Shown one piece after another: positions 497-52,916 of a stretch of DNA of 64,000 nt; the first letter of the stretch is position 1; each line of letters begins with the position of its first letter. The translations under genes and the position numbers were made by a program. Where the stretch lies: assembly GCA_964360335.1 (NCBI GenBank), contig CAYHVH010000001.1, positions 23,426 through 87,425 on the forward strand. The letters are read 5' to 3'. Origin of the DNA: an uncultured Candidatus Saccharibacteria bacterium (lineage in GTDB: Bacteria > Patescibacteriota > Doudnabacteria > UBA920 > 2-01-FULL-46-14). The notes beneath the pieces were generated by a model, which saw only the letters and a program-made list of their open reading frames with translations, ran no database searches and was not told the DNA's origin.

Positions 497-1876
497 CTAT
501 CTACTAACTCCTAACTTTTTAAGTTCTTCCCTTGCCACCTCCCGCTCGTCCCAAGGCAGCTCCACACCGTCCACATTCAAGCTTTGCTCGTGCCCCTTGC
601 CCGTGATGGCCACCAAATCACCGCTTTTGGCTTGGTTGAGGGCAAATCTGATAGCTTCGCGGCGATCAGGGATGATAAACAAATCAGTATTAAGGCGCTT
701 GTTTTTTACGCCGGACGCAATTTCTTGGCAGATTTTCTCGGCTGGTTCCGACCGATTGTCCTCTCGGGTTAAAACTATGGAGTTGGCAAACTCGTCGGCG
801 GCGCTTCCCATCAGCGGCCGCTTGGTCGAATCACGCTCGCCGGCGGCGCCAAACACCATAATAATGCTGCCCGAAACTTTCGGCCGTAAAAACGACAGCA
901 ACTCTCGCAAGCCGTTCGGCGTATGAGCAAAATCCACCAGGACCAAAAAAGGCGCTTTGGTTTCCAAAAACTCCATCCGGCCGGAAACGGTTTTTATCTG
1001 ACTAAGCCCCTTTTGAATACTGGCCACTGGAATTTTGTAAGCTGTAGCTACGGCAATGGCCGCCAAGGCATTTTTGACATTAAACTGGCCGGGAAGGCTC
1101 AACTCTATGGGAAAGCCGCCTGCTGGAGTATGAACTGAGAGCTTGCTTCCTTCCAAACTTTCATTGATGTCGCTGGCCCAAATCTGTGCCCGACTACTGA
1201 AGCCGTAAGTAAGCAACCTCTCCTTTAATTCCTCCCCATCGCTTGGGGAGGAAGATCGGAAGGAAAGACCATCACCAGGAGACCCGCCTTCGGCAAGCTT
1301 CGGACGGGCAGGTGGGGAGAGGGGGAGAGAGGTCGAAATTAATTTCAATAGTTGTTCATAACTTTTATCCTCTCGGTTCAAAACCGCGTATTTCACATTT
1401 TTAAACACTTTTGCTTTTGCCCGCAAATACTCCCCATAAGTTTTATGATAATCCAAATGCTCGTGGGTGACATTGGTAATGACCGCCGTTTCAAAGGTAA
1501 TTCCCCATGTCCGGTATTGGTCTAAGGCGTGGGAGGTGACTTCCAAAACCGCGTACTGGGAGCCGGCTTTGACCATTTGCTGAAGCAGCCGTTGCAACAA
1601 AAAGGAGCTGGGCGTGGTGGTATGCAGGCCGGTGTCAAGCGCTTGTCGCCCGATCTGCGCATTAATTGTCGAGAGAAAAGACACTGGCAGCCCTGCGGCT
1701 TTCAAGATGCTCGCTACGAGATTAACCGTCGTGGTTTTGCCGTCAGTACCAGTGACCCCGATGACATGCAGTTTGCGGGACGGGAAGCCATAGATAAAAT
1801 TCGCGAGGATGGCTCCCGCGAGGTGGTAGTAATTGATAAGTTTTTGACCTAAAAATTTACGTAAAAAGTTTTTCAT
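497..1876 (-). CDS. murE: UDP-N-acetylmuramoyl-tripeptide synthetase (Mur ligase, MurE-like) carrying an in-frame repeat insertion
   Basis: P-loop GVTGTDGKTTT, Mur ligase middle and C-terminal domains, and a REDNRSEP motif (DNPR-like). 459 aa including a roughly 41-aa insert. Confidence 0.75.
   Translation of the reverse strand: MKNFLRKFLGQKLINYYHLAGAILANFIYGFPSRKLHVIGVTGTDGKTTTVNLVASILKAAGLPVSFLSTINAQIGRQALDTGLHTTTPSSFLLQRLLQQMVKAGSQYAVLEVTSHALDQYRTWGITFETAVITNVTHEHLDYHKTYGEYLRAKAKVFKNVKYAVLNREDKSYEQLLKLISTSLPLSPPARPKLAEGGSPGDGLSFRSSSPSDGEELKERLLTYGFSSRAQIWASDINESLEGSKLSVHTPAGGFPIELSLPGQFNVKNALAAIAVATAYKIPVASIQKGLSQIKTVSGRMEFLETKAPFLVLVDFAHTPNGLRELLSFLRPKVSGSIIMVFGAAGERDSTKRPLMGSAADEFANSIVLTREDNRSEPAEKICQEIASGVKNKRLNTDLFIIPDRREAIRFALNQAKSGDLVAITGKGHEQSLNVDGVELPWDEREVAREELKKLGVSR
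1213..1335. repeat. Family-A palindromic element inside murE, in frame (~123 bp)
   Basis: GCAACCTCTCC...CTCCCCATCGCTTGGGGAGG...GGAGAGAGGTCGAA. Encodes the loop SPGDGLSFRSSSPSDGEELKERLL. About 85% identical to the copy at 5981. Confidence 0.7.
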
Positions 1877-2008
1877 GAAACTTCCCTCCTCCCCAGGCGC
1901 CCGGCCTTCGTAGCCACTTCGGCGGAGTAGGCTGGGGAGGAGAAGGAGGAGAGGTCGAACTGTGGATCCTTGTATGCAACCTCTCTCCAGCTCTCCCCTC
2001 GCCAGGGG
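1872..2008. repeat. Family-A element, intergenic (murE start / ruvA stop), two units
   Basis: CCTCCTCCCCAGGCG...GGCTGGGGAGGAG...GGAGAGGTCGAAC and GCAACCTCTCTCCAGCTCTCCCCTCGCCAGGGGAGAGAG. Confidence 0.65.
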
Positions 2009-2021
2009 AGAGAGTTAAGCG

Positions 2022-2606
2022 TTATTGTTTCGCCAAAAGCCGCAACGCTTCCCGAATCCTTTCCTCGGAAGAGCTGAGGTTTTTCGGAATCTCCGCCAAA
2101 GCCTGCCGCGCCTCGGACCGGCTATAACCGAGCGCCAGCAAAACGTCCAGCACGTCGGCATGGGCTTTGGAGAGTTCGCGCAAGTCCTCTTCTTTGCCGC
2201 CCAAGTCCTCGCTGATCTTGTCTTTGAGCTCGACGATGAGCCGCTCGGCGGTCTTGCGGCCAATCCCCGAAACTTTGGTAAAAACGGCGGGGTCCTCATT
2301 AACAATTCCGGATTTGATCATCGCCAAGTCCGCCAGCGACATCACGGACAAAGCGAGCTTCGGTCCCACGCCCGAGACCGTGAGCAAGAGTTCAAAAAAC
2401 TCGAGCTCCGCAGTGCTGGTAAAACCATAAAGTGCGAGCTGGTCTTCGCGAACATGAGTATGAATATACAGCGAAAGTTTTTTGCCAACCTCCGAGGTCA
2501 AAGAAAGCTGGGGAATGACAAAAACTTTGTAGCCGACATAGTCGGTCGCCAGGATAATGTAGTTTTTGCGGATGGCTTTAACGGTGCCGGAGAGATAGCC
2601 GATCAT
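2022..2606 (-). CDS. ruvA: Holliday junction DNA helicase RuvA
   Basis: 194 aa. OB-fold N-terminus MIGYLSGTV, HhH motifs (LLTVSGVGPKLA, FTKVSGIGRKTAERL) and a C-terminal RuvB-binding domain. Confidence 0.85.
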   Translation of the reverse strand: MIGYLSGTVKAIRKNYIILATDYVGYKVFVIPQLSLTSEVGKKLSLYIHTHVREDQLALYGFTSTAELEFFELLLTVSGVGPKLALSVMSLADLAMIKSGIVNEDPAVFTKVSGIGRKTAERLIVELKDKISEDLGGKEEDLRELSKAHADVLDVLLALGYSRSEARQALAEIPKNLSSSEERIREALRLLAKQ

Positions 2607-2686
2607 GCAGGTATTATGCCTATTGAATAAGTTTTTTTCAATCTGCTAAAATGAAAGTTGACCCTGTCTAATCTAATGCTAATGCT

Positions 2687-2785
2687 GCCCTCTCCAGGCG
2701 TGGAGAGGGACTAAGGGAGAGGTCGCATTTGCGACATAATAAACGACCTCTCTTCCGGCCTCTCCCCACGCCTGGGGAGAGGAGA
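2687..2785. repeat. Family-A element, intergenic (ruvA / uvrB), two half-units; its 3' end GGAGAGGAGAAG lies at the Shine-Dalgarno position for uvrB
   Basis: CTCTCCAGGCGTGGAGAGGGACTAAGGGAGAGGTCGC ... CGACCTCTCTTCCGGCCTCTCCCCACGCCTGGGGAGAGGAGAAG, followed by the uvrB ATG at 2794. Confidence 0.65.
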
Positions 2786-2793
2786 AGTAGCTT

Positions 2794-4785
2794 ATGCAGA
2801 AATTCAAACTCGTCTCAAAATTTCAACCCGCGGGCGACCAACCCCAAGCGATTGAAAAACTCGTGGCTGGCATCAAAAAAGGCCATAATTTTCAAACCCT
2901 CCTGGGCGTTACCGGCAGCGGCAAGACTTTTACCATGGCCAACGTGATCCAGGAAATCCAAAAACCCACGCTGGTGATTTCCCATAACAAAACTTTGACT
3001 GCCCAGCTCGCCTCGGAATTCCAGGAATTTTTCCCGCAAAACGCCGTGCACTATTTCGTTTCCTATTACGACTACTACCAACCCGAGGCATATATTCCCC
3101 GCACTGACACTTATATTGAAAAAGAAACCGATATTAATGAGGAAATTGATAGGTTGCGAAATGCGGCCACCATGTCTTTACTGACCCGCAAAGACGTCCT
3201 GATTGTCGCCTCGGTATCCTGCATTTACGGCCTCGGCAACCCCAGCAACTATTTGGATTTGAGTCTGCTCCTCGAAACCGGCAAACCCTACAAGCGGGAA
3301 AAGCTTTTGCGGCGAATAGTGGATCTGCAGTACCTGCGCAATGACTTGGAACTGCGCCGAGGGACTTTCCGCTTGCGCGGCGACGTCTTGGAAATTGTGC
3401 CGGCGCACGAGGACCGAGTATTAAGATTGGACTTTTTTGGCGACACTCTGGAAAAAATCACGGAGTTCGAGGCGCTCACCGGCGAGGACGAAACAAAGCA
3501 CGACTCCTACCGCCTGTTTCCGGCCAAGCACTTCATCACCCCACACGACAAACTGCTTTTGGCCGCCGACAACATCCGCCAGGAACTGCGGGAGAGACTG
3601 CAGTATTTCAAAAGCCGCAATCTCCTTCTCGAAGCCCAGCGCATCGAACAGCGCACGAATTTCGACCTTGAGATGATGCTCGAGACCGGCTACGTCAACG
3701 GGATTGAAAATTACTCGCGACAGTTAGATTTCCGCAAACCGGGGGAACCACCCTCCACCCTCCTTGACTATTTTCCCGACGACTTTCTGTTGTTTATTGA
3801 CGAATCGCACATGACCGTGCCGCAAATTCGCGGGATGTATGAGGGAGATCACTCCCGCAAAAAAAACCTGGTCGACTACGGCTTTCGGCTGCCTTCGGCT
3901 CTGGACAACCGGCCTCTGAAATTTTCCGAGTTTTTGAAGAAAGTTGGCCGGGCGGTTTTTGTCTCGGCGACTCCGGCAGAATACGAAATCAACAAGTCCC
4001 GCCAAATCGTAGAACAGCTCGTGCGCCCGACGGGGCTCTTGGACCCGGAGGTTGAGGTCCGTCCAACCCGCCACCAGATTGACGACCTGCTCGAGGAGAT
4101 TCGGAAGCGCACCGACCAGGCCCAGCGCGTATTGGTAACGACTCTGACCAAAAAAATGGCCGAGGAACTCTCTGAGTACCTCAAGGAAATTGGGGTGAAG
4201 ACTCACTATCTGCACTCGGACATTGACACCTTTGAGCGCCTCGAGATCCTGCGCGATCTGCGCCTCGGAGTTTACGATGTAGTGGTGGGGATTAACCTTT
4301 TGCGGGAGGGCTTGGATCTGCCGGAAGTCTCCCTGATAGCGATCTTGGACGCTGACAAAGAAGGATACTTGCGCTCAAAAACCGCACTACTGCAGGTGAT
4401 GGGCCGCGCCGCGCGACATTTAGACGGCCACATCATCATGTACGCTGACCGCGTGACTGGCTCGATGCGCTCCGCCATGGACGAAGTCCAAAGACGCCGC
4501 AAAATCCAGGAGGAGTATAACCGGCGTCACGGCATTACCCCGCAGAGTATTATCAAAGAGGTCCGGGAAAGCCGTTTGGCGGGGGCAAAAATCGCTCCTG
4601 CAGAACAAAAAACTGAAATCGATTACGCCAAGCTCGACAAAAAAGAACTAAGATATTACCTTGAGGAGCTCAAAGACCGCATGGATTTGGCCTCAAAAAA
4701 TCTGGAATTTGAAAAAGCCGCCGCGCTAAGAGACGAGATCATCGAAATAAATAAAAGCCTCAAACGGACGAGGCATAAAGTTTGA
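2794..4785 (+). CDS. uvrB: Excinuclease ABC subunit B
   Basis: 663 aa. Walker A GVTGSGKT, helicase motifs, a UvrB interaction domain and a C-terminal UVR domain ([14 protein letters not shown]). Confidence 0.95.
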
Positions 4786-4850
4786 GCGATCCGAATGATC
4801 CTAATTTTCATCCGAATGTTCCAAATCAGGTAGATTGGGATCGCTTTTTT
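4786..4850 (+). terminator. Hairpin plus T-run after uvrB
   Basis: GCGATCC...GGATCGC stem followed by TTTTTTAT. Sits between convergent uvrB and rpsT. Confidence 0.45.
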
Positions 4851-5109
4851 ATATTTTCGCTATCGCCTGACTAAGCCGAGATTTCAATCGCGCGGCTTTG
4901 TTTTTGTGAATGACGTGCTTTTTCCAAGCCTTGTCGATTTGTTTGTAGGCAAGACTTAAGGCTTTGACCGCTTCTTCTTTCTTTTTCGCGGCCACGGCCT
5001 GGCGAACAGACTTTACCGCATCCTTGTACTTCCCAATAGTCACTAGGTTAATCGTCCGTCTGCGACGGCTCTGTCTCATCGCCTTGGCTGCAGATCGCGT
5101 AATCGGCAT
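4849..5109 (-). CDS. rpsT: 30S ribosomal protein S20
   Basis: MPITRSAAKAMRQSRRRRTINL...; 86 aa from an internal ATG. The longer 110-aa ORF has an implausible hydrophobic leader. Confidence 0.85.
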   Translation of the reverse strand: MPITRSAAKAMRQSRRRRTINLVTIGKYKDAVKSVRQAVAAKKKEEAVKALSLAYKQIDKAWKKHVIHKNKAARLKSRLSQAIAKI

Positions 5110-5177
5110 GATAGTAAAAAAATAAAATTCAAACGTTAAATGACGTAGCGTTACATTAGCAAAAAAGGGAAACCCGG

Positions 5178-6410
5178 TCAACCCCGGAACAGCTTGTAAA
5201 GTTTAAACAGCGCGTAAAATGCCCGATTCAAAACCAGATCCCGGGCGCCGACACCGTAGACTTCCTTGCCCGTCACTCCGGCCGTGACATACCGGGTTTT
5301 GAACCGGGTAATCCCAGCCCAAGGATGGTCTGGTTCGTTCGGCGGGGCGACGCCCCACAAATCATACCATTTTTTGCCGCGTTGTCTGCTTAATTTGATT
5401 GCTTCCCAAAGGACAAGGCTTGGAGCATTGGCGGTTCGCTCTTTGGCAGAAGAAGCCGCGTACAAATAAGTTCCGGAATCACCGAAAAGCATAATGACGG
5501 CGGCAGCCAGGATTTCGCCTTGATATTCGCCGACCAGAAGCTCGGCGTGGGGTGCAAGCGACCTCTCCTTTGGTCCCTCCCCACGCCTGGGGAGGGAAGA
5601 AGAAAATAAAGCTTCTACTTGCGGAGTATTTGACCCCTCCTCAACCCTCCCCTCCTGCCCGTCCGGCAGGCGGGCGTCAGGAGAGGGAGTCATGAAGATA
5701 TCACGGAATTTCATGAATCGCTCGCGCGGCCAAGATACAATCCCGTCTCGTTTGGTGGTTTCCTCCAAAAGCTTCAAGAAAATTTCAAAAGCCCCTTTGT
5801 CTTGAGTCGCTACTCGCACTTTTACTCCCCTGCGCTGGGCGAGGCGGATATTGTAGCGGGATTTTTCGTGCATATTCTCCAAGAGTTCTTCCTCGCTTCT
5901 GCTTAAATCCACCAAAATCGTGCGAGCTGGCTCCATCTGCCGAAGCAAAATCTCGGGCTTTCTGAAACCCAGACCTGCAAGCGACCTCTCCTTCAACTCC
6001 TCCCCATCGCCTGGGGAGGAAGAGACAGAAGGATGCGGCGGATTAATTCTCGCCAAAACGGATTTTTCCTGCCGGCCGATTTCTTTGATTTTTTCTATCA
6101 AGGCCTGCATACCCCCTCTCCACTCTCCCCCTAAGTTAGGGGGAGAAAAAGAGGGGGTACCGCCCAATTCATGATTCGTAATTCTTGATTCGTCGAAAAT
6201 CGGTCCCTTCGGCACTTCCAAATAAGTTCTGCCAAACGGCAGCCTTTTTATTACGACTTGCGCTAAAAGCTGGTTCTGGATATCGAAGCGATAAACTTTG
6301 TGGCCGAGAGCGGCTTGAAACTGCCCCCATTGCCAGGACTGGAGGAAAGAGGAAGGAGAAGAGTTCCTGGCTACAAATTCATTCCAATTATCTTTAGAAA
6401 GTAGATTCAT
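5178..6410 (-). CDS. FemAB-family peptidoglycan aminoacyltransferase (lipid II amino-acid transferase-like) carrying two in-frame repeat insertions
   Basis: FemAB/FemX-like N-terminus (SSFLQSWQWGQF) and C-terminal GNAT-like fold. 410 aa including inserts. Confidence 0.65.
   Translation of the reverse strand: MNLLSKDNWNEFVARNSSPSSFLQSWQWGQFQAALGHKVYRFDIQNQLLAQVVIKRLPFGRTYLEVPKGPIFDESRITNHELGGTPSFSPPNLGGEWRGGMQALIEKIKEIGRQEKSVLARINPPHPSVSSSPGDGEELKERSLAGLGFRKPEILLRQMEPARTILVDLSRSEEELLENMHEKSRYNIRLAQRRGVKVRVATQDKGAFEIFLKLLEETTKRDGIVSWPRERFMKFRDIFMTPSPDARLPDGQEGRVEEGSNTPQVEALFSSSLPRRGEGPKERSLAPHAELLVGEYQGEILAAAVIMLFGDSGTYLYAASSAKERTANAPSLVLWEAIKLSRQRGKKWYDLWGVAPPNEPDHPWAGITRFKTRYVTAGVTGKEVYGVGARDLVLNRAFYALFKLYKLFRG
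5566..5690. repeat. Family-A element, in frame in the FemAB-like gene (unit 1)
   Basis: GCGACCTCTCCTTTGGTCCCTCCCCACGCCTGGGGAGGGAAGAAG... Encodes ...SLPRRGEGPKERSLAP... Confidence 0.65.
5981..6160. repeat. Family-A element(s), in frame in the FemAB-like gene (unit 2 plus a nested palindrome)
   Basis: GCGACCTCTCCTTCAACTCCTCCCCATCGCCTGGGGAGGAAGAGACAGAAGG (encodes SPGDGEELKERSLAG) and CCCCCTCTCCACTCTCCCCCTAAGTTAGGGGGAGAAAAAGAGGGGG (encodes GTPSFSPPNLGGEWRGG). Confidence 0.65.
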
Positions 6411-6501
6411 AATTATACGCTCGCCATTCTGGAGTCCCGCCCTCTGGCGGGACGATAGAATCCTAGAGATCCTTCCCCCTCGACTACGCTCGGGGTCAGG
6501 A

Positions 6502-9276
6502 TTACACGGCTTGCCGTGTCATCTCTTCCCAATTATCGCCGAACTTGGCTTCCACGACGAGGGGAACTTTGAGTTTATAAATATTCTGCATGATTTTGGT
6601 AATTTTTCCGGCATAGTCATCAACTTTCTTTTCGGCTATTTCAAACACCAGCTCATCGTGAACCTGTAAGAGCAACCGGCAATCCTCGCGAGACGTCAAA
6701 TTTTCCTCCGCCAGTTTGTTCATCGCCAGTTTGATAATATCCGCCGAAAGCGATTGAAACGGCATGTTGATGGCCGCTCGTTCAGCAGCGGCGCGAACTG
6801 GCCACTGCGAAGAATTAATCTCGGGGAGATACCGGAGTCGCCCGAGTTCGTTTTTGACGTAGCCCGAGCGGCGCGTTTCCCCAACTATTTCCTCAAGGTA
6901 GTGAGTCAAGCTGTGATAGGTTTCGAAATATTTATCGATAAAATCTTGGGCTTCGCCTTGGGACACTCCTTTGATCCGGCTCTTGAGACCATAAGCGGAA
7001 AGGCCGTAGAGTACCCCGAAATTTATGGTCTTGGCATCTCGGCGCATTTCCGGGGTAATTTCGACCTCTCCTCCAGCTCCTCCCCTCGCCAGGGGAGAAG
7101 GGAGGGATTGAAAAATCTCGCGAGCTGTTGCTTCGTGAATGTCGCCGCCTTCGTGAAAAACTTTAATCATTTTCTCGTCGCCCGACAAATGGGCGGCCAG
7201 ACGAAGCTCAATCTGGGAGTAGTCCACGGACAGCAATTTATACCCTGTTTCGGCAACGAACGCCCCGCGGATTTTTCGACCAAACTCGGTGCGGATCGGA
7301 ATGTTCTGGAGATTCGGTTCGCTGGAGGACAATCGCCCGGTGGCAGTAACTGTCTGGTTAAAACTTGTGTGTAGCCGCCGCGTTTGAGGACTAACCAAAT
7401 CCGGCAAGGCATCTAGATAAGTATTTTTAAGTTTCGTTAATTCCCGCCATTCCGATATCAAATCAATAATCGGATGCAATCCTTTGAGCTTCTCGAGTTC
7501 CGTGGCCGCCGTGGACAGGCCGGTTTTGCCTTTTTTGAGCTCCTCGGTGGGAATCCCCAATTTCTCAAATAATATCTGTTTTAGCTGGATCGGGCTGCCG
7601 ATGTTAAATCTCTCGCCCGAAAGCCGGTAAATCTTCTGTTCGAGTTTCGAAATCTCCGCCGTGGCCTCGGCCGACAACTCCTTCAAGCACGACGGATTGA
7701 CCTTTACTCCCCAGCGTTCCATTTCCGCCAAAACTCTCACCAGCGGCATTTCGATCTCATAAAAAATTTTCTCTAAATCTTTACTTCTTAGCTCTTTTTC
7801 CAGTTTTTGTTTTAGCCGGAAAGTGTAGTCCACATCCTCGCAACAGTAAGCCGCGACCTCTCGGACCGGCACTTCGGCCATGCTAATCTCTTTTTTGCCT
7901 TCGCCAATCAAACTTTTAATCGGGGTTTTCCGGAAGCCAAACTCGGTAAAACTTAGGGTGTCCAAATCGAAATTCCGCGCCCCGGGGTTTAAAAGATAGG
8001 CGGCAATCATCGTGTCAAAAAACTCTCCTCCCAAAATCACTCCGGCCTTTTGCAAAATCAAATAATCATACTTGAGATTATGGCCGATTTTCAGAACTTC
8101 CGGATTCTGCAAAATTTCCGTGAGGGCCGGGGAAATCATCGCCGCCGGCAGGTAAAAGGCCCGGTTTTCTTGCCACGCCAACCCGAGGCCGAGAAGCTCA
8201 GCCTGCATCGGGTGAACCGAGGTCGTTTCGGTATCAATAGCGATTTGTTTCTGCCTCTCAAGCTCAGTAATGATGCTTTGGAATTTTTTCGGCGTATCAA
8301 GGAGCTGATAGTCAAATTCCTCCTCGCCCCCTCTGCTCCCTCGAGCTCTACTTAGGGCAGGCTCATGAGGGGAGTGGGGGATGTCAGTCTTTGGCAGTTT
8401 ATCCAAAAGTGAACGGAACTCCAGCTCCTGAAAAAGTTTAAAAACTTTCTGTTCATCATAAGCCAGAAGCCGGGCCTGGGTTAAATCCAGTTTCACCGGG
8501 AGGTTTTTGACGATTGTTGCCAATTTTTTGGAAATTTCCGCATCCGCCCGGTGTTCCAGAAGCAGTCGAGCGACGCGCGGCTTGAGCGCCGAGTGGTCTT
8601 TGCCGACTAAATATTTATAAATTCCTTCCAAGGTCTTAAATTTTTGCAGGAGCTCGGTCGCGGTTTTTTCCCCGATGCCTTTGACCCCGGGAATGTTATC
8701 CGAAGGATCACCGCGCAGGGCTTTAAAATCTAGAAGTTCCTCGGGTCTGAGGCCATATCGCTCCCGAACCGCCCCCACGTCATAAAGTTTGGTTTCGGTC
8801 AAGCCTTGCTTAGGAGCATAGACTTTCACCCGTTCGTCTACTAATTGCAGGGTGTCCAAATCCCCGGTTAAAATCACAGTATCCAAATCTTCCTGCTTCC
8901 GGGCTTTTTCGGCCAGAGTGCCAATCAAATCATCAGCTTCATAACTTTCCAGTTCATAGACTGGAAGATTAAAAGCTCTGACCAATTCTTTGACGCGGGG
9001 AATTTGCTCATAAAGTTCGGCGGGGGCTTTAATTCTTGTTGCCTTATAAGGCTCATAAATTTTTTCCCGGAAAGTTGGCGCCGGAAAGTCAAACGTCACT
9101 GCCACGTACTCGGGCCGCAGTTCTTTGAGGGCTTTCAAAAACAACAGGGCAAAACCGTAAACGCCGTTTACTGGCTCGCCCTTTTTGGTGGACAGGTGAG
9201 GAATCGCGTGAAAGCCGCGGTGGACCAAAGCATTGCCGTCTACCAATAATAAAACTGGTTTATCTTTGCTGGACAT
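6502..9276 (-). CDS. polA: DNA polymerase I
   Basis: 924 aa. 5'-3' exonuclease, 3'-5' exonuclease-like and polymerase domains (motif RRDAKTINFGVLYG, and the motif-C region SQIELRLAAHLSGDE). Two in-frame repeat insertions. Confidence 0.95.
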   Translation of the reverse strand: MSSKDKPVLLLVDGNALVHRGFHAIPHLSTKKGEPVNGVYGFALLFLKALKELRPEYVAVTFDFPAPTFREKIYEPYKATRIKAPAELYEQIPRVKELVRAFNLPVYELESYEADDLIGTLAEKARKQEDLDTVILTGDLDTLQLVDERVKVYAPKQGLTETKLYDVGAVRERYGLRPEELLDFKALRGDPSDNIPGVKGIGEKTATELLQKFKTLEGIYKYLVGKDHSALKPRVARLLLEHRADAEISKKLATIVKNLPVKLDLTQARLLAYDEQKVFKLFQELEFRSLLDKLPKTDIPHSPHEPALSRARGSRGGEEEFDYQLLDTPKKFQSIITELERQKQIAIDTETTSVHPMQAELLGLGLAWQENRAFYLPAAMISPALTEILQNPEVLKIGHNLKYDYLILQKAGVILGGEFFDTMIAAYLLNPGARNFDLDTLSFTEFGFRKTPIKSLIGEGKKEISMAEVPVREVAAYCCEDVDYTFRLKQKLEKELRSKDLEKIFYEIEMPLVRVLAEMERWGVKVNPSCLKELSAEATAEISKLEQKIYRLSGERFNIGSPIQLKQILFEKLGIPTEELKKGKTGLSTAATELEKLKGLHPIIDLISEWRELTKLKNTYLDALPDLVSPQTRRLHTSFNQTVTATGRLSSSEPNLQNIPIRTEFGRKIRGAFVAETGYKLLSVDYSQIELRLAAHLSGDEKMIKVFHEGGDIHEATAREIFQSLPSPLARGGAGGEVEITPEMRRDAKTINFGVLYGLSAYGLKSRIKGVSQGEAQDFIDKYFETYHSLTHYLEEIVGETRRSGYVKNELGRLRYLPEINSSQWPVRAAAERAAINMPFQSLSADIIKLAMNKLAEENLTSREDCRLLLQVHDELVFEIAEKKVDDYAGKITKIMQNIYKLKVPLVVEAKFGDNWEEMTRQAV
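7061..7106. repeat. Family-A element in frame in the polA fingers region
   Basis: TCGACCTCTCCTCCAGCTCCTCCCCTCGCCAGGGGAGAAGGGAGGG. Encodes SLPSPLARGGAGGEVE immediately upstream of the RRxxKxxNFG O-helix. Confidence 0.65.
8318..8385. repeat. Degenerate family-A-like palindromic insert in the polA interdomain linker
   Basis: CCCCCTCTGCTCCCTCGAGC...GAGGGGAGTGGGGG. Encodes HSPHEPALSRARGSRGGEEE. Confidence 0.4.
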
Positions 9277-15663: not shown

Positions 15664-15698
15664 CGGCCAAATCAAACTAATCTCCAAATTTCCTTTCG

Positions 15699-15726
15699 TA
15701 AAATACCCGCCATGGCGGGTATTTTA
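15699..15726 (+). terminator. Perfect palindrome TACCCGCCATGGCGGGTA flanked by A/T runs; a bidirectional intrinsic terminator after pepA
   Basis: AAAATACCCGCCATGGCGGGTATTTTAC. Confidence 0.6.
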
Positions 15727-15802
15727 CAACATAAGTCCATATTGTCTACGTTTTTATGTAATTACATAATGTTGTAGACAAGCGAATTTAGCAAAAAGTA
15801 AA

Positions 15803-15838
15803 AAAGGAGACAGACTACAACGCGGTCTGTCAGCGCTT
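15803..15838 (-). repeat. 36-bp hairpin repeat copy 1 (AAAAAGGAGACAGACTACAACGCGGTCTGTCAGCGCT); terminator of the minus-strand RibA-like gene
   Basis: Identical copy at 17683-17717. On the minus strand it reads GACAGACCGCGTTGTAGTCTGTC then TCCTTTTT. Confidence 0.7.
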
Positions 15839-17653: not shown

Positions 17654-17682
17654 ATTTTCTGGACTAGGAAAAGGGGATAAAA

Positions 17683-17717
17683 AGGAGACAGACTACAACG
17701 CGGTCTGTCAGCGCTAA
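17683..17717 (-). repeat. 36-bp hairpin repeat copy 2; terminator of the minus-strand OMP-like gene
   Basis: Identical to 15803-15838. On the minus strand the hairpin is followed by TCCTTTTTAT. Confidence 0.7.
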
Positions 17718-25360: not shown

Positions 25361-26455
25361 TCAGATCTTGATCGGCATGACGATATAGAGGTAGTTGTCC
25401 CTCCCTGCCGGTACCAAGGCCGCAGGAGACGAAGAGTTGATGACTCTTAAAGAAACCTGCTCGTCTGGTAAATTATTCAGGCACTCCAGGAGATAGCGGT
25501 AGTTGAAAACTGCCGCATTTTTTTCGCCCGTTAATTCCCCGAACAGGCGAATTTCGCTCCCTCCCACCTGGACCGCTTGGGACTTGATTACCACCTGCTT
25601 CCCTGGCGGATTGAGTTCCAGCTCAATGTTGTTGGTGTCCCCGGCGAAAAGGCTTGCCGCCTTCAAAGCCTGTACAAATTCGCCCCGCTTGAGCTCTGCC
25701 TGGGTTGTGAAGTTTTGAGGGACTATCTGTTTGTAATCTGGATACTGGCCCTCGATCAGACGCGAAATAAGTTCAACCTCCTCGGTTCTCAAACAAATTT
25801 GCCCTTCCTTGAGAAAGACCTCGATTGTTCCCTCCCCCATGCTTCTACTTGCTTCATTGACGGCGCGGGTTGGGACAATCACCTGGCGGTTGCTACCCAC
25901 CTCTTCCCCAAGTGGGATTTTTACTTCTGCCAAGCGGTAGCGGTCGGTGGTAGCCAGGGTTAGCCCTTTCCCCTCAAAACTAAACAACACCCCAGAAATT
26001 TCCGGCTGGGTTTCGGAAAAGGCCGCGGCAAATCCTACCTCCCCAACTCCTTCCCGAAGCGCTTTCCCTGAGAGTTTGGTATAAACCCCGCCTTCCCCCC
26101 CGGGAATGAGGGGAAAGTCTTCTACCCCCAAGCCGTTGATATGAGTTTTGGCGTTTTCCCCTTCCAGCAACAGGTCGGTTTTTTCTGTGGAGATAGTGAG
26201 CTTTTCCGTTAGCAAATTAGCCACGAGTTCGTTGAGTAATTTCGCCGGTACCGTAAGCTCCCCGTCTTCTACTACTTTCCCCCCCACCCAAGTATTAACC
26301 GCCATCTCTAGATTTGTGGTGGTGAGTTTGAGGCGACCCTTCTCTGTGCGGAGCAAAATATTGTTGAGAATGGGTAGGGCGTTCCCTCCCCCAATAATCC
26401 GCGAGCAGATCTGTAAGCCAGCATTGAGGTTTTTTTTTGTACACTGCATTTTCAT
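25361..26455 (-). CDS. dnaN: DNA polymerase III beta sliding clamp
   Basis: 364 aa, three-domain clamp architecture, immediately downstream of dnaA. Confidence 0.9.
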   Translation of the reverse strand: MKMQCTKKNLNAGLQICSRIIGGGNALPILNNILLRTEKGRLKLTTTNLEMAVNTWVGGKVVEDGELTVPAKLLNELVANLLTEKLTISTEKTDLLLEGENAKTHINGLGVEDFPLIPGGEGGVYTKLSGKALREGVGEVGFAAAFSETQPEISGVLFSFEGKGLTLATTDRYRLAEVKIPLGEEVGSNRQVIVPTRAVNEASRSMGEGTIEVFLKEGQICLRTEEVELISRLIEGQYPDYKQIVPQNFTTQAELKRGEFVQALKAASLFAGDTNNIELELNPPGKQVVIKSQAVQVGGSEIRLFGELTGEKNAAVFNYRYLLECLNNLPDEQVSLRVINSSSPAALVPAGRDNYLYIVMPIKI

Positions 26456-26499
26456 AAAAGTGATTGTTTCTAAAGAAGAAGTTTTAGTAAGGAGTAATT

Positions 26500-26660
26500 A
26501 TAGTAATTGCTGGGGGAATGTGGGAAAGGGGGAGATTCTGCTGCTAGCGCCCGTCCCCAGTTCGCGGCCGGTGGGGAAGGTGGTGACAGGGGTGGGGAGA
26601 GATTGGGGGGGAAGGAAACAAGGACAGGATCTTTCCCCCAATCCCCCCACAGTTAATCCA
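26500..26660. repeat. G-run-rich palindromic spacer between dnaA and dnaN (GGGGA/TCCCC hairpins), possibly related to family A
   Basis: GATTGGGGGGGAAGG...CTTTCCCCCAATCCCCCC (roughly 13-bp stem), plus GTCCCCAG...GGTGGGGAAGG and GGGGTGGGGAGAG. Confidence 0.4.
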
Positions 26661-28017: not shown

Positions 28018-28211
28018 TTTTGTACCCCATTCTTTTTGCTTATGTTTTTCCCTTGCTGCTATTCTAACAGAATGGTTATCAACATGTAAAATAATAGGAA
28101 ATCCCCAGGAATAAGCCAAAAAAAGGATTGTATGTGGATAGGGTGTGTAAAACCAGTGCATCAAATTTTTGAATTGGCCAAATTCGATTTGGGAAGGTAT
28201 AATTAGAAAAG
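28018..28211. promoter_or_regulatory. AT-rich dnaA/rpmH divergent intergenic region with DnaA-box-like 9-mers (candidate oriC / dnaA promoter)
   Basis: TTATCAACA and TGTGGATAG are each one mismatch from the TTATCCACA box. The region is AT-rich. Confidence 0.4.
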
Positions 28212-43632: not shown

Positions 43633-43840
43633 GGTTTTAGTAACGAAATTTCGCGCGAGCTAATAAAGCTCCCCAGCCTGAAGGCTGGTATATTCCTTGA
43701 GCCTCTGGCTCTGCGGAATACGTCGCCGCATCGGCATTCGCCGATTCATTGCGGCTCCCGGAGCTGTGTTATCCCCTCCGCTTCGCTCCGGGCTTGGCTT
43801 CATCTCCGCGCTTGAAAGCGCGGAGTATTCGCCTAAGGGA

Positions 43841-43893
43841 TAATAAAAAAGCCCGAGAAGGGGTTTTCCGTTGCCGCCCTGCCTTCTCCGGGA
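43841..43893 (-). terminator. Intrinsic terminator of the minus-strand CBS gene
   Basis: On the minus strand: CCCGGAGAAGGCAGGGCGGCAACGGAAAACCCCTTCTCGGGC followed by TTTTTTATTAT. Confidence 0.5.
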
Positions 43894-46212: not shown

Positions 46213-48270
46213 ATGGCTGACCTTGTGAAACTCAAAGAACTCGCCAGGCTCGTTCGTTACTATATTCTGGTCTCGACCACGGCCGCGGGGTCCGGGCACC
46301 CAACATCTTCGCTGTCTGGCGTGGAACTGATGACGGCATTGATGTTTGGCGGCTATTTTCGCTTTGACTTGAATCGTCTGGGATACGCAAACAATGACCG
46401 GCTGATTTTCTCCAAAGGCCATGCCTCGCCCCTCTTCTATGCGCTGTGGGCAGCGGCTGGCGCGCTGACGGAAAAAGAGCTTTTGACTTTGCGCAAATTT
46501 GGCAGCCCTTTGGAGGGGCATCCTACCCCGGCATTTCCCTATACCGAAGCGGCGACAGGCTCTTTGGGACAAGGGTTGTCAATTGGCGTGGGCATGGCCC
46601 TTAATGCCAAGCTTGACCGGCTTCCCTATCGCACTTATGTGCTTTTGGGGGACAGTGAAATGGCCGAGGGCTCGCAATGGGAGGCGATTCAGCTCGCCGC
46701 GTACTATAAACTTGATAATTTGGTCGGCGTTCTCGATGTCAATCGTTTGGGTCAACGAGGGCAGACGATTTACGGGCATGATATTAAAGCTTATCAGAAA
46801 CGCATCGCGGCGTTCGGGTGGAAGACTATAGTCGTGAATGGGCATAATTTGAATGAGATTTTGAAAGCGTACAAACAGGCGACCCCCTCTTCATCTCCCC
46901 CTATCCCGTTTGACGGGACAGGGGGAGAAAAGAGAGGGGGTGGAAGGCCGGTGATGATCATTGCCAAAACCATTAAAGGTAAAGGAGTTTCATTTATCGA
47001 AAACAAAGAAGGCTGGCATGGGAAGGCGCTTTCCCCGGAGGATTTGAGGAAGGCACTACGAGAATTGGGGAAAGTCGACAAGAAGATGCGAGGAGAGATG
47101 GCAAAGCCGGAGAGAATTAGTAGACCGGAGACAGTAGATAGTAGATCGGAAAGCAAAGAAAAAATTAATTACAAAATCGGAGAAGAGGCGGCAACAAGGA
47201 AGGCTTACGGTAACGCCCTAGTCAGGATTTATCCGAAGTTTCCGAATATCGTAGTCCTCGACGCCGAGGTTTCCAATTCAACTTACGCGGAGATATTCAA
47301 GGAAAAATATCCGGACCGGTTTTTGGAGATGTTTGTGGCGGAGCAGAATATGGTGGGTGCGGCTCTTGGTCTTTCGCGGCGCGGCAAGATCCCGTTTGTT
47401 TCGACCTTTGCCGCGTTCCTGACGCGCGCTTTTGACCAAATCCGAATGAGCCAGTATTCGGCCGCCAACATCAAGTTTGTGGGCTCGCACGCCGGGGTGT
47501 CCATCGGCGAGGACGGGCCGTCGCAGATGGGCCTCGAGGATTTGGCAATGTTTCGCAGTATTTTAGGAAGCGTGGTTTTGTATCCTTCGGATGCGGTTTC
47601 AACCGATAAGCTTGTGGAAGCGGCAGCTAAGCACAAAGGCATTGTCTATATCAGAACAACGCGAATGGAAACCCCGGTGCTTTATTCCCCGGGGCAGGAG
47701 TTCAAAATCGGCGGGAGTAAAGTTTTGCGCCATAGCCGGAAAGACGTGGCGACAGTGCTGGCGGCCGGGATAACATTGCATGAAGCGTTGGCCGCTTATG
47801 AAGAACTCAAGAAGCAAGGGGTTTTGATTCGGGTGATTGACTTGTACAGCATCAAACCGATTGATAAAAAGACATTGACGCAGGCTGCCAAAGAAACGGG
47901 AGCGATAATCACGGTCGAGGACCATTATCCCGAGGGCGGGATTGGGGAAGCGATTAGAAGCGCTCTTTCTGACCTCCCTCCCCAAAGCATGGGGAGGGAT
48001 AAAGGGAGAGGTTTTCCGCCAGCCCGCCCCGCTTCGCTTGGCGAGGCCGGGGAGGCGGATCCGCCTTGGGCAGAGAAACTCCCTGGTAAAACCGACCTCT
48101 CTCCTTCTCTCCCCATCACCTGGGGAGAGGGTAGGATTATCTCTTTAGCGGTGCGCAAAATGCCGCGAAGCGGCAAACCGCAGGAGCTTTTGGATTATGA
48201 AGAGATATCGCGCGATGCTATTATTAAGGAAGTAAAGAGAATTGTTTCTAAATCGTCACCTCGAATTTAA
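46213..48270 (+). CDS. tkt: Transketolase (full length) carrying 2-3 in-frame repeat insertions
   Basis: ThDP-binding motifs (GHPTPAF..., LLGDSEMAEGSQWEA), pyrimidine-binding and C-terminal domains. 685 aa. Confidence 0.9.
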   Translation: MADLVKLKELARLVRYYILVSTTAAGSGHPTSSLSGVELMTALMFGGYFRFDLNRLGYANNDRLIFSKGHASPLFYALWAAAGALTEKELLTLRKFGSPLEGHPTPAFPYTEAATGSLGQGLSIGVGMALNAKLDRLPYRTYVLLGDSEMAEGSQWEAIQLAAYYKLDNLVGVLDVNRLGQRGQTIYGHDIKAYQKRIAAFGWKTIVVNGHNLNEILKAYKQATPSSSPPIPFDGTGGEKRGGGRPVMIIAKTIKGKGVSFIENKEGWHGKALSPEDLRKALRELGKVDKKMRGEMAKPERISRPETVDSRSESKEKINYKIGEEAATRKAYGNALVRIYPKFPNIVVLDAEVSNSTYAEIFKEKYPDRFLEMFVAEQNMVGAALGLSRRGKIPFVSTFAAFLTRAFDQIRMSQYSAANIKFVGSHAGVSIGEDGPSQMGLEDLAMFRSILGSVVLYPSDAVSTDKLVEAAAKHKGIVYIRTTRMETPVLYSPGQEFKIGGSKVLRHSRKDVATVLAAGITLHEALAAYEELKKQGVLIRVIDLYSIKPIDKKTLTQAAKETGAIITVEDHYPEGGIGEAIRSALSDLPPQSMGRDKGRGFPPARPASLGEAGEADPPWAEKLPGKTDLSPSLPITWGEGRIISLAVRKMPRSGKPQELLDYEEISRDAIIKEVKRIVSKSSPRI
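46880..46945. repeat. Family-A-type nested palindrome in frame in tkt
   Basis: CGACCCCCTCTTCATCTCCCCCTATCCCGTTTGACGGGACAGGGGGAGAAAAGAGAGGGGGTGG. Encodes TPSSSPPIPFDGTGGEKRGGG. Confidence 0.65.
47970..48140. repeat. Composite family-A insertion (three palindromic units, ~171 bp) in frame in the tkt C-terminal domain
   Basis: TGACCTCCCTCCCCAAAGCATGGGGAGGGATAAAGGGAGAGG ... GGCGGATCCGCC ... CCGACCTCTCTCCTTCTCTCCCCATCACCTGGGGAGAGGG. Encodes a 57-aa loop. Confidence 0.7.
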
Positions 48271-48298
48271 TTCGGGAACCAGGATTAAAACTTCTGGA

Positions 48299-48324: not shown

Positions 48325-48328
48325 AAGA

Positions 48329-49279: not shown

Positions 49280-49280
49280 T

Positions 49281-49325
49281 TGTCATTCCGGCCAAAGTTT
49301 ACCCCGCACTTGATGCGGAATGACA
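49281..49325. repeat. Family-B repeat, copy 3 (TGTCATTCCGGCCAAAGTTTACCCCGCACTTGATGCGGAATGACA)
   Basis: Near-identical to the 5' half of copy 1, plus the terminal inverted repeat. Confidence 0.6.
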
Positions 49326-49369
49326 GGCAGGTACAAGTAAGTATTAATTACGTAATTAAATAAGTATTT

Positions 49370-50284: not shown

Positions 50285-50297
50285 TCTGAACCAGAAG

Positions 50298-50921: not shown

Positions 50922-50930
50922 AAATGCCAT

Positions 50931-51827
50931 ATGAGGCCCTCAAATTTAAAAACCCGCATCTTTCTTGACTCTGGGGATCCGAACGAAACGCGTGAAGTCA
51001 TAAAGTTTCTCGGGTTTTTGGACGGTCAGACGACTAATCCCAGCTTAATTGCCAAGAACCCGGAAACGACCGGCAAGAAATTTTCCCAAAAAGAGATTTT
51101 GGAATTTTATAAAAAAGTCGTGGTTGAGGTTTCCGCTCTGATCCCCGCCGGTTCCGTATCAGTTGAGGTTTACGCTGACCCTTCGACAAGCTCAGGGGAT
51201 ATGTTAGAACAAGGTCGAGATTTTTTTTCTTGGATTCCAAACGCACACATCAAATTTCCGACAACCAAAGAGGGCCTGAAGGCCGCTGAAATTGCCGTTA
51301 AAGAAGGCATGCGCGTCAATTTGACTTTGTGCTTTTCCCAGGAGCAGGCGGCGGCCGTGTACGCGGCAACGAGGGGAGCAAAAAAAGGGCAGGTCTTTGT
51401 TTCGCCGTTTGTCGGGCGGCTGGATGATCGGGGGGAGAACGGGATGCAGCTCGTTGAGAATATTATCAAAATGTATCGGGCGGGAGACGGGCATGTGGAG
51501 GTGCTGACCGCGAGCGTACGGAATCTCAATCATTTGCAGTACGCAATTCAGCTCGGTTCCGACATCCTGACCGCGCTGTTGAAGGTTTTGAAGGAGTGGG
51601 CCGACTCCAATTTCCCTCCCCAGGCGTGGAGAGCCCCCTTCTCTATCCCTCCCCAGGCGAGGGGAGGGATTAAGGGAGAGGTCGAAACGGCAAAGGAGTT
51701 GAAGCCAATACCCTACCGCGAGGTTTCTCTTGACAATCCCTGGCAGGACTACGACATTCGTCATGAGCTGACCGACGTCGGCATTGAAAAGTTTGCCGCG
51801 GATTGGAACGCGCTTATCAAGCCATAA
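50931..51827 (+). CDS. tal: Transaldolase / fructose-6-phosphate aldolase family (TalC/MipB-type) with an in-frame repeat insertion
   Basis: DSGDPNE..., FPTTKEGLKAAE..., NLTLCFS motifs. 298 aa. Confidence 0.85.
   Translation: MRPSNLKTRIFLDSGDPNETREVIKFLGFLDGQTTNPSLIAKNPETTGKKFSQKEILEFYKKVVVEVSALIPAGSVSVEVYADPSTSSGDMLEQGRDFFSWIPNAHIKFPTTKEGLKAAEIAVKEGMRVNLTLCFSQEQAAAVYAATRGAKKGQVFVSPFVGRLDDRGENGMQLVENIIKMYRAGDGHVEVLTASVRNLNHLQYAIQLGSDILTALLKVLKEWADSNFPPQAWRAPFSIPPQARGGIKGEVETAKELKPIPYREVSLDNPWQDYDIRHELTDVGIEKFAADWNALIKP
51611..51685. repeat. Family-A element in frame in tal
   Basis: ...CCCTCCCCAGGCGTGGAGAG...CCCTCCCCAGGCGAGGGGAGGGATTAAGGGAGAGGTCGAA. Encodes FPPQAWRAPFSIPPQARGGIKGEVE. Confidence 0.7.
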
Positions 51828-51857
51828 AATAATATTCTTCGAACGGTATTTAACAAT

Positions 51858-52916
51858 ATGATGCGCGACGCGATTCTCAGTTTTCCGAAGCAGTTCCGGT
51901 TCGTCCCGAAGGTGGAAAACGGGCCGGTGAAAAAATACAAAAAATACATTGTCGCCGGCATGGGCGGTTCGCACCTCGCCGCGGATATTTTGAAGACTTT
52001 AAAACCGGAATTGGATATCATCGTACATAGTGATTACGGATTGCCGGCTTTTCTCGACCCCTCCCGGCCTTCGGCCACCCTCCCCTCGTCAGGAGAGGGG
52101 GGAAGTAAGGAAAAACGTCTGGAGAGGCGAATTTCGCAAACTTTGCTCATCGCGAGTTCCTATTCGGGTAATACTGAAGAGACACTGGATGCATTTGAAC
52201 AAGCAAGAAGTAAAGGAATCGCAGTGGCGGCGATTGCGGTTGGCGGCAAGCTTCTGGAACTGGCCAAGCAGTATCAAACTCCTTATGTTCAGATGCCGGA
52301 TACGGGGATTCAGCCCCGTTCGGCCCTGGGCTTCAATTTGCGAGCGCTTCTGAAAATCATGAAGCAAGGCGAGCTCCTCAGGCAGAGCCGGGAGCTGGCT
52401 AAAAGTTTGCAGCCTAAGAATATCGAGGAAAAAGGCCGAGCGCTCGCGCAAAAGCTAAAGAGTCGGATGCCGGTAATTTACGCGTCGCAAAAAAACTATT
52501 CGCTCGCCTATAACTGGAAAATCAAATTTAACGAGACGGGCAAAATCCCGACCTTTTACAATATTTTTCCGGAACTGAATCACAACGAGATGTCCGGATT
52601 TTCCGCCGCAGGCGGACCCGCCTCTGGCGGGGACGCACCCGATCCTAAAAGTTTGTCAGAAAAATTTTATTTTCTCTTTTTGCATGACAGCAGCGATCAC
52701 CCGCAAATCCAAAAGCGAATGGACGCAACCGCGAAACTTTATCGGGAGCGCGGTTTGCCAGTGGAAATTTTACCGATTCAGGGGGAGAACGCCATGCACA
52801 AAATCTTCTCCTCACTGGTCCTTGCCGACTGGGCGGCACTTTACACGGCCGAGGGATATGGGTTTGAGGCCGAACGGGTGCCGATGGTGGAGGAGTTCAA
52901 GAAACTGATTAAGTGA
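51858..52916 (+). CDS. Bifunctional phosphoglucose/phosphomannose isomerase (archaeal-type SIS-domain PGI/PMI) with an in-frame repeat insertion
   Basis: Two SIS domains (VAGMGGSHLAADIL...; ...LIASSYSGNTEETL). 352 aa. Confidence 0.7.
   Translation: MMRDAILSFPKQFRFVPKVENGPVKKYKKYIVAGMGGSHLAADILKTLKPELDIIVHSDYGLPAFLDPSRPSATLPSSGEGGSKEKRLERRISQTLLIASSYSGNTEETLDAFEQARSKGIAVAAIAVGGKLLELAKQYQTPYVQMPDTGIQPRSALGFNLRALLKIMKQGELLRQSRELAKSLQPKNIEEKGRALAQKLKSRMPVIYASQKNYSLAYNWKIKFNETGKIPTFYNIFPELNHNEMSGFSAAGGPASGGDAPDPKSLSEKFYFLFLHDSSDHPQIQKRMDATAKLYRERGLPVEILPIQGENAMHKIFSSLVLADWAALYTAEGYGFEAERVPMVEEFKKLIK
52054..52110. repeat. Family-A-like palindrome in frame in the PGI/PMI gene
   Basis: CTCGACCCCTCCCGGCCTTCGGCCACCCTCCCCTCGTCAGGAGAGGGGGGAAG. 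Encodes DPSRPSATLPSSGEGGSKE. Confidence 0.6.

Follow-up and report, generated by a model that had tools for sequence, protein, structure and literature searches.

We analysed a 64 kb stretch of bacterial DNA (hereafter the window; 92% coding, 51% GC) from a contig assembled at ~3-5x coverage out of 0.1 µm-filtered groundwater from Hainich well H51. Relatives of its RuvC protein carry the name Candidatus Doudnabacteria, and the organism is thus a Doudnabacteria-like member of the Candidate Phyla Radiation (CPR, Patescibacteria). A GC-rich, imperfectly palindromic element of ~50-60 nt recurs in this window, both in the two spacers that flank ruvA and within the intact open reading frames (ORFs) of murE, a FemAB-family gene, polA, ruvC, tkt and tal, with a degenerate copy in pgi. 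An earlier note on this DNA had proposed that the element behaves like the Rickettsia palindromic elements (RPEs) in a CPR-like genome. Our analysis bears this out, since in-frame copies lie in seven intact hosts, identified by Pfam as Mur ligase, FemAB, DNA polymerase I, RuvC, transketolase, transaldolase and bacterial PGI.

The terminus GGAGAGGTCG, allowing at most one mismatch, was found 16 times in the window against 3.8 expected, and the pattern CTCCCC-N6-GGGGAG nine times against 0.23 expected. A profile built with nhmmer from ten copies detected 13 non-overlapping units and three partial termini. We also scanned for hairpins without reference to any motif, requiring nine or more base pairs in the stem, 3-9 nt in the loop, and a GC-rich arm of pyrimidine-rich sequence opposite a purine-rich one. 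This returned 14 hairpins (at 1229, 1991, 2688, 2759, 5574, 5650, 5998, 6124, 7077, 36188, 46894, 47975, 48107 and 51645), compared with 0.3 in first-order Markov simulations. All 14 lie within element regions and form one family; the recurrence described in the earlier note is therefore confirmed, as is, by folding, the palindromic nature of the copies. Eleven of the 14 core hairpins are genic, in the six ORFs from murE to tal named above. Weaker copies comprise the pgi unit, a partial unit in tal and a doubtful site in polA. The non-genic units, four to five in number, make up two inverted doublets (1880-2016 and 2685-2787) that fill the murE-ruvA and ruvA-uvrB spacers. Relative to the 8% of the window that is non-coding, intergenic copies are 3.6-fold over-represented (p = 0.02), an enrichment expected under purifying selection. 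Overall, the copies are strongly clustered at 0-7 kb, 36 kb and 47-52 kb (p ~2e-4). The genes dnaA, dnaN and recF, with rnpA, yidC and jag on the other side (25361-28233), point to a replication origin region near 28.3 kb, and element clusters lie ~20 kb on each side of it.

At the gathering threshold, Rfam found three tRNAs across the whole window and no RNA family for the element, while permissive E-values over 1000-7400 gave only chance microRNA-like matches. A GC-island scan of the window was dropped, being non-specific at 51% GC. DNA-uptake sequences, CRISPR repeats, inteins and group I/II introns were set aside on the grounds of size, hairpin form, cross-phylum sharing and lack of matching features.

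The core of the unit is an invariant pyrimidine/purine hairpin, CCTCCCC-loop-GGGGAGG, of 22-26 nt with a perfect stem of 9-10 bp (TCCCTCCCC-loop-GGGGAGGGA). On one side a spacer (CTTAATCC/GGATTAAG) prolongs the stem as far as the terminus (TT)CGACCTCTCC; the extended stem reaches ~24 bp and the arm opposite the terminus is more degenerate. The folding energy is -29 to -35 kcal/mol for single units (z -2.5 to -3.4) and -61.2 kcal/mol for the doublet at 2680-2792 (z -6.0). Together, the window and other CPR loci yielded nine tail-to-tail inverted doublets of ~97 nt, seven with a gap of ~11-16 nt and the other two with gaps of 45 and 75 nt. Three further composites have outward termini in the manner of terminal inverted repeats, and composites that start with CGACCTCTCC and end with GGAGAGGTCG occur in murE (1210-1339) and at L022, L083, L093, L145, L077, L081 and L115. 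A full-palindrome variant is present in tkt and in the FemAB gene. A second GC-rich hairpin type (GACCCGCC..GGACGGGC, GCCCGTCCGGCAGGCGGGC, GCCCGTCCG... or CCGCC..GGCGG) accompanies some copies, at 1275-1312, 5650-5674, 48020-48080 and possibly 52605-52640. It is also read within ORFs, for example as PARPASLGEAGEADPP, and may be a separate repeat family.

The individual copies are listed in Table 1. Compared with the earlier note, which had counted two copies in the FemAB gene and two to three in tkt, each of these genes contains four. Of the two copies assigned to polA, the one in the polymerase domain is clear and the second is doubtful. The peptides quoted in that note were located where it had placed them.

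Table 1. Copies of the palindromic element and associated hairpins in the window (aa, amino acid residues of the host protein).
Copy	Position	Strand	Remarks
Composite in murE (aa ~180-223)	1210-1339	+	RNA fold -48.9 kcal/mol, z -2.4; terminus CAACCTCTCC, core hairpin 1229-1253, second GC hairpin GACCCGCC..GGACGGGC, inverted terminus GGAGAGAGGTCGAA
Intergenic murE/ruvA, left half of doublet	1880-1959	-	Hairpin ends in GGAGGAGAGGTCGAA; purine-rich arm 8-18 nt upstream of murE ATG
Intergenic murE/ruvA, right half of doublet	1973-2016	+	Type 2: GCAACCTCTCTCC..CTCTCCCC-TCGCCA-GGGGAGAG
Intergenic ruvA/uvrB, left half of tail-to-tail doublet	2685-2729	-	
Intergenic ruvA/uvrB, right half of doublet	2740-2787	+	Purine-rich arm GGGGAGAGGAGAAG 9-20 nt upstream of uvrB ATG
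FemAB-family gene unit (aa 270-286)	5555-5602	+	Peptide SSSLPRRGEGPKERSLA
FemAB gene partial unit with second-type hairpin (aa 246-262)	5627-5674	+	Hairpin GCCCGTCCGGCAGGCGGGC; inverted counterpart of 1301-1337
FemAB gene unit (aa 126-145)	5978-6035	+	Peptide SPGDGEELKERS; fold -30.3 kcal/mol, z -2.5
FemAB gene full-palindrome variant (aa ~84-100)	6109-6160	.	ACCCCCTCT..TCTCCCCCT-loop-AGGGGGAGA..AGAGGGGGT; DNA fold z -5.1
polA unit, polymerase domain (aa 722-740)	7059-7112	+	Peptide SLPSPLARGGAGGEVE; fold -29.1 kcal/mol, z -2.8
polA, possible decayed copy, low confidence (aa 296-322)	8311-8391	.	RNA fold -31.5 kcal/mol; DNA fold z only -0.6; undetected by nhmmer
ruvC unit (aa 18-39)	36169-36232	+	Peptide APSLSSLPRRGEGIRERS; fold -34.6 kcal/mol, z -3.4
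tkt full-palindrome variant (aa 225-243)	46885-46945	.	DNA fold z -6.2
tkt unit, third frame (aa 582-602)	47958-48017	-	Peptide GRDKGRGF
tkt second-type GC hairpin, between two units (aa 603-623)	48020-48080	.	Peptide PARPASLGEAGEADPP
tkt unit, opposite orientation (aa 626-642)	48090-48136	+	Peptide DLSPSLPITWGEG
tal partial unit (aa 226-235)	51607-51633	-	
tal unit (aa 238-253)	51642-51687	-	Peptide SIPPQARGGIKGEVET
pgi degenerate unit (aa 66-85)	52055-52110	+	Peptide LDPSRPSATLPSSGEGGSKE; weak fold, z -0.75

Alignment of the host proteins to solved structures and ~240 orthologs showed that the genic copies form extra segments of 10-52 residues that are absent from most orthologs, in line with the earlier note's view that they are additions to otherwise complete family members. 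RuvC has ~16 additional residues relative to E. coli RuvC (1hjr), located in the hairpin that joins strands two and three. The corresponding additions are ~10 residues for PolA relative to Taq polymerase (1bgx), 19 and ~50 for Tkt relative to human TKT (6rjb), ~35-40 for MurE relative to a PDB MurE (8f5d) and ~27 for PGI relative to 1tzb. The Tal unit falls within residues 222-275, a stretch that matches two residues of the PDB transaldolase 9ui2, and the PDB homologs of the FemAB protein were too distant for placement of its inserts. In the AlphaFold (AF2) model of RuvC (mean predicted local distance difference test score, pLDDT, of 89) the insert is coil with a pLDDT of 59-69 and the remaining fold is intact. 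The model of the 685-residue Tkt is poor throughout (mean pLDDT 61.6), and the low confidence of its inserts at 226-243 and 589-639 is thus weak evidence. The insert peptides total ~296 residues, 66% of which are Gly, Ser, Pro, Glu or Arg, and the loops that they form are probably disordered.

All three frames of this DNA are used, giving ..GEGIRERS, ..GGIKGEVE and ..GRDKGRGF, and it is read twice in reverse orientation, so that the different frames and both orientations noted earlier were recovered. One DNA sequence read in three frames and in both orientations, with further copies between genes, indicates that the homology is at the level of DNA rather than peptide. All of the ~14 genic copies preserve the frame and are free of stop codons. 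The earlier note had drawn attention to lengths divisible by three and to the absence of stops; both statements hold, but intact ORFs necessarily entail them, and they are informative only as evidence for translation. As such evidence they count, since a copy removed before translation would keep the frame by chance in ~1/3 of cases, whereas consistently in-frame, stop-free copies are predicted by survival under selection if the inserts are translated. At the position where most other copies contain GATTAAGG, a sequence that would create a TAA in the third frame, the tkt copy read in that frame has GATAAAGG.

We compared RuvC and Tkt in detail with their orthologs. Among 120 RuvC sequences (that of the window and 119 orthologs at 52-76% identity), 95 have a short 8-residue loop and ten, the window's included, have an element-like insert at this loop. 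For all ten, the closest insert-free relative is nearer than the closest insert-bearing one, and Fitch parsimony requires at least ten changes. The ortholog DNAs L006 and L008 have pyrimidine/purine hairpins of a different sequence at the same loop. Most Tkt orthologs are 610-614 residues long, compared with 685 in the window, and ~110 of 120 lack inserts. In the closest ortholog, P0121, the C-terminal site is empty (SALPRS-NAP-IISLAV) where the window protein has 52 extra residues (units 47958-48136), and P0125 and P0127 have other element-like inserts there. At the first tkt site (residue ~226), the element common to the window and P0125 shows 78.8% identity (77% at third codon positions), although the gene as a whole is 68.6% identical, with saturated third positions at 43.5%. 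The inner stems of these two copies differ by three compensatory pairs (CCCGT/ACGGG vs TTCGC/GCGAA), and P0121 has a different variant of the element at this site. An element better conserved than its gene, in variants that differ per lineage, does not fit ancestral loops with drifting DNA. Judged from these alignments, the permissive loops in question have been occupied more than once, and the palindrome appears to be actively kept.

Copies closely related to those of the window are present in other CPR genomes. Over 40-46 nt, elements of the window share 93-97.5% identity with copies in Saccharibacteria metagenome-assembled genomes (MAGs) and in Doudnabacteria nzgw378, and the aligned host genes at those MAG loci are at most ~76% identical or undetectable. 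In these MAGs the element lies within Pfam-confirmed domains of Fpg, CN-hydrolase, WecG/TagA, GatA, GatB, Fmt, RmlD, MnmA, M24 peptidase and RsmI. In other groundwater contigs the hosts, judged by eye, are Fpg, topoisomerase I (TopA), ATP synthase gamma (AtpG) and 6-phosphogluconate dehydrogenase (Gnd). A doublet of ~97 nt is common to Fpg of a Saccharibacterium, Fpg and TopA of Hainich contigs, and the intergenic spacers of the window. The fpg genes of L129 (Hainich) and L022 (Saccharibacteria), from two CPR classes, have the same two-unit element at the same site (compare TopA of L143). Its first half is read in different frames (LPRRGEGSRERS vs PPQAWGGIKGEVE) and its second half in the same frame, so that either the insertions were independent or frameshifts within the element have been compensated. 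Of 30 near-consensus copies from JGI and Hainich metagenomes, ~6-8 lie deep in ORFs and most are at ORF ends or intergenic; the genic fraction of the window is therefore on the high side.

We propose, with a probability of roughly 70%, that the family consists of non-autonomous mobile palindromic mini-elements of the repetitive extragenic palindrome (REP/REPIN, the latter an inverted REP doublet) or MITE (miniature inverted-repeat transposable element) type, which resemble RPEs in behaviour in that in-frame insertions survive and are translated. Copies would be spread in trans by a mobilising enzyme, for which a hairpin-recognising tyrosine transposase, related to REP-associated tyrosine transposases (RAYTs) or IS200, is a candidate. 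As the genome is 92% coding, insertions would fall mostly into genes, where selection would eliminate all except the frame-keeping, stop-free ones in tolerant surface loops, and the surviving inserts would be translated as disordered loops. Mobility is suggested by the patchy distribution. The doublets, hairpin, clustering and occasional intragenic copies match REP/REPIN biology, while the in-frame colonisation of housekeeping genes matches RPEs.

REPs are short (20-40 nt), GC-rich, imperfect palindromes that are mobilised by RAYTs, and their inverted doublets form one long hairpin (Bertels and Rainey 2011, PMC3116915; Di Nocera et al. 2013, PMC3733652). The window element is similar in its short repeated palindrome, its inverted doublets with a short spacer and its clusters; here its hosts include polA and ruvC, and its copies flank ruvA and uvrB. 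It differs in that the GTAG or CGTC tag of REPs (PMC3733652) is absent beside the window stems, which are flanked by CGACCTCTCC-N8 on one side and by purine-rich sequence on the other. REPs are also predominantly extragenic, whereas 11 of 14 hairpins here are genic, and REP families are usually species- or genus-specific, whereas the window sequence is shared across classes and phyla.

RPEs likewise place palindromic DNA in frame in many unrelated housekeeping genes of a small, host-dependent genome, add a peptide without loss of the protein, and include intergenic and decayed-looking copies (Ogata et al. 2000, reviewed in PMC10969869). They are ~100-150 bp long and confined to Rickettsia, in contrast to the shorter unit and doublet found in this CPR host. 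According to PMC10969869 and general knowledge, RPE peptides are conserved, which implies a single frame, whereas the window elements use three frames and both orientations. The window elements are furthermore GC-rich, with a strict pyrimidine/purine hairpin, and extend to several CPR classes, with related forms in other phyla. Sequence homology to RPE-1 to RPE-10 is unlikely, given the differences in length, base composition and host taxon. "RPE-like" thus refers to behaviour only, and the architecture is nearer to REP/REPIN doublets than to RPEs. MITEs such as Coxiella QMITE1, enterobacterial ERIC/RU and the Neisseria Correia elements are also non-autonomous, fold into hairpins and occasionally fuse in frame with ORFs (PMC5896051, PMC2759123, PMC10969869). 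They have terminal inverted repeats, and some composites here have the form CGACCTCTCC...GGAGAGGTCG. However, MITEs are typically AT-rich, with target-site duplications and a recognisable parent insertion sequence (IS), while the window element is GC-rich and no duplication or parent IS was seen. The type of behaviour is therefore known, and what is new here is its density in essential genes, the use of three frames, the re-use of loops and the near-identical copies across CPR classes.

Several points weigh against a mobile, translated element. No transposase, RAYT or IS was found among the ~50 Pfam-scanned ORFs of the window, no RAYT in the gene tables of the other contigs examined, and no IS at the other loci examined. 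Inspection of the flanks of the composite copies revealed no consistent target-site duplication, although a TT...AA context is frequent. REPIN biology predicts that doublets are more conserved than singlets, and this was not observed (median 37 vs 41 bits, p = 0.08) in a crude test that is biased by a profile and loci chosen on the type-1 half. The RuvC tree, built on 148 columns, is weakly resolved, and gene conversion, or ancient insertions that were often lost, could account for the re-use of loops instead of new insertions. Database relatives, the nearest of which are ~70-79% identical in protein, showed no presence/absence polymorphism at the strain level. We infer translation of the inserts from frame preservation, and the conservation of the arms with compensatory stem changes could equally reflect selection for host function.

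This last point leads to the alternative that the hairpins are host-functional DNA or RNA structures kept by selection, with the genic copies as tolerated or useful by-products, which we regard as unlikely. Such structures could act in mRNA stability or processing, separate cistrons, supply a ribosome-binding sequence, or bind a nucleoid or repair protein, and host function may coexist with a mobile or selfish origin. The arms are conserved beyond the synonymous sites of the host, with compensatory stem changes, and the same 40 nt are 93-97.5% identical across CPR classes. The GGAGG-like arm of each intergenic doublet is located upstream of a start codon (murE or uvrB) at a distance of 8-20 nt, and most genes of the window have no recognisable Shine-Dalgarno sequence; several metagenome copies adjoin the starts or ends of ORFs. 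The order in mRNA is hairpin followed by GGAGAGGUCG in 9 of 11 genic copies (p = 0.065). However, host function leaves unexplained the copies deep in at least seven unrelated ORFs and in all three frames, the absence from most orthologs and the clustering in few genes. There is also no Rfam family and no terminator-type T-run at the elements, and intra-strand template switching can keep the symmetry of a palindrome without any function.

A tiny intron, or ribosomal bypassing, could instead remove or skip the elements before the protein is made, so that the host enzymes would not be lengthened. There are precedents for bypassing in T4 gene 60 and in the "byp" elements of yeast mitochondria, which, like the mobile GC clusters there, are short, GC-rich, palindromic mobile elements of a compact genome, its protein-coding genes included. 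The window elements resemble these in being ~50 nt, GC-rich and palindromic, and they form very stable hairpins in coding sequence (-29 to -50 kcal/mol). The ribosome skips byp elements and their frame need not be kept, whereas ~14 of ~14 genic copies here are in frame and stop-free, for which chance would be ~(1/3)^14, and which argues for translation. The avoidance of TAA by the third-frame tkt copy is likewise a constraint that removal would not impose. Intron-like features or take-off and landing codons were not noticed at the elements, Rfam gave no intron matches, and we consider removal or bypassing very improbable.

Even less probable is that the inserts are ancestral, lineage-specific, low-complexity loops under protein-level selection whose similarity is convergent. 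Their uniformly Gly/Ser/Pro/Glu/Arg-rich peptides would fit such an origin, as would sites that are common to relatives, such as tkt residue 226 in P0121 and P0125. Against this, the likeness is in DNA that yields three peptides from three frames, is also read in reverse and occurs between genes; the intergenic copies further exclude codon usage as an artefactual source of the DNA similarity. The earlier note had itself raised ancestral loops as a challenge to mobility, and the relatives decide against them: most RuvC and Tkt orthologs lack the segments, and where a site is shared its DNA is conserved beyond the gene rather than more diverged. Finally, although coverage of ~3-5x is low for a metagenome and repeats can mislead assemblers, assembly or chimera artefacts, about which the earlier note had also cautioned, can be set aside as the least credible explanation, since every insert keeps the frame, the phenomenon recurs in unrelated MAGs of other studies, contig L133 is 99.9% identical to the window over 1284 nt spanning the ruvC element, the identical RuvC with its insert was found in five contigs from four ENA assemblies and one Logan run, and identical Tkt and FemAB proteins, inserts included, come from independent assemblies of separate Hainich samples or Logan.

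We scanned the GTDB species representatives for the 22-base pattern CGACCTCTCC-N7-9-CTCCCC-N5-8-GGGGAG and obtained more than 109 loci, compared with ~1-12 estimated by chance depending on GC content. Among the matches listed, several genomes have many copies, and Chloroflexota, Armatimonadota, Cyanobacteria, CPR and others are represented. The palindromic similarity across phyla reaches past the bases specified in the pattern, though a few single cross-phylum matches may be due to chance. In many of these phyla the motif forms a multi-copy palindromic repeat (L010-L118, e.g. L025, L033, L037, L041 and L104), with cultured Scytonema and Calothrix among the Cyanobacteria and with Edwardsbacteria as a further group. 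The repeats of other phyla are often two-hairpin units with an inverted terminus at the end (GGGGGxTTAGGTC or GGGGAGAGGTC). Copies were embedded in ORFs in 65% of cases in CPR, vs 52% for random positions, and in 48% vs 74% in other phyla, a comparison that is suggestive only, since GC-rich genomes give long spurious open frames. In an Armatimonadota MAG with conserved motif flanks, a search for a neighbouring transposase found a longer non-coding repeat and no ORF. A motif scan of IMG/VR gave no matches and no sign of phage carriage. In the literature searched, of which our coverage is incomplete, we found no report of such elements in CPR/Patescibacteria.

Tentatively, pyrimidine/purine hairpin elements of many phyla might form one super-family that spreads horizontally and has the window elements as its CPR branch, a view that we consider possible but doubtful. 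Its common form would be GACCTCTCCCC..CCCCTCCCC-loop-GGGGAGGGG.., often as two-hairpin units with an inverted terminus. If true, this would imply a single widespread mobilising enzyme. In CPR, where intergenic space is scarce, the family would have moved into coding sequence and re-used permissive loops, and lineage-specific insertions in CPR proteins would to a large extent stem from this source, which has been overlooked.

With ~14 genic copies per 64 kb, and provided that the window is representative, in-frame copies in a genome of ~1 Mb would number roughly a hundred or more. To our knowledge this density, which affects PolA, RuvC, MurE, Tkt and Tal, exceeds that reported for Rickettsia. 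Such elements would account for many "CPR-specific insertions" in conserved proteins and call for caution in reading these as adaptive or as phylogenetic markers. They would also amount to a natural experiment that shows in which of their loops essential enzymes can accommodate 10-50 additional residues. The conserved terminus and doublet architecture offer a handle on the mobilising enzyme in a group whose mobile-element biology is almost unknown, and the near-identical copies across CPR classes, with related ones across phyla, make horizontal spread a testable question.

The window contains some further features. Inspection of the 25 nt upstream of 24 start codons showed that most genes lack a Shine-Dalgarno sequence, while rpoB has AAGGAGG; in murE and uvrB the purine-rich arm of the element occupies the Shine-Dalgarno position. 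For the FemAB gene, tyrS and tkt, a TATAAT lies a few bases ahead of the ATG, a sign that their mRNAs may be leaderless or have very short leaders. Between an S1-domain gene and a CBS gene, a 188-nt non-coding stretch (43662-43845) is 91% identical to the JGI contigs L141 and L147, where the flanking genes show no match in their DNA. Rfam gave nothing significant for this stretch, which could represent a conserved non-coding RNA that is so far undescribed. Loopless perfect palindromes of 14-16 bp, composed of AT/GC sequence, are located between genes at 30116-30147, 15698-15727 and 37598-37625; they look like ordinary bidirectional terminator-like hairpins outside the element family. Also unrelated to the family is a perfect 37-nt direct repeat, AAAAAGGAGACAGACTACAACGCGGTCTGTCAGCGCT, with an internal GACAGAC/GTCTGTC hairpin, whose copies at 15801-15837 and 17679-17715 bracket 1.9 kb with a GTP-cyclohydrolase-II-like ORF and a TrmB-family regulator.

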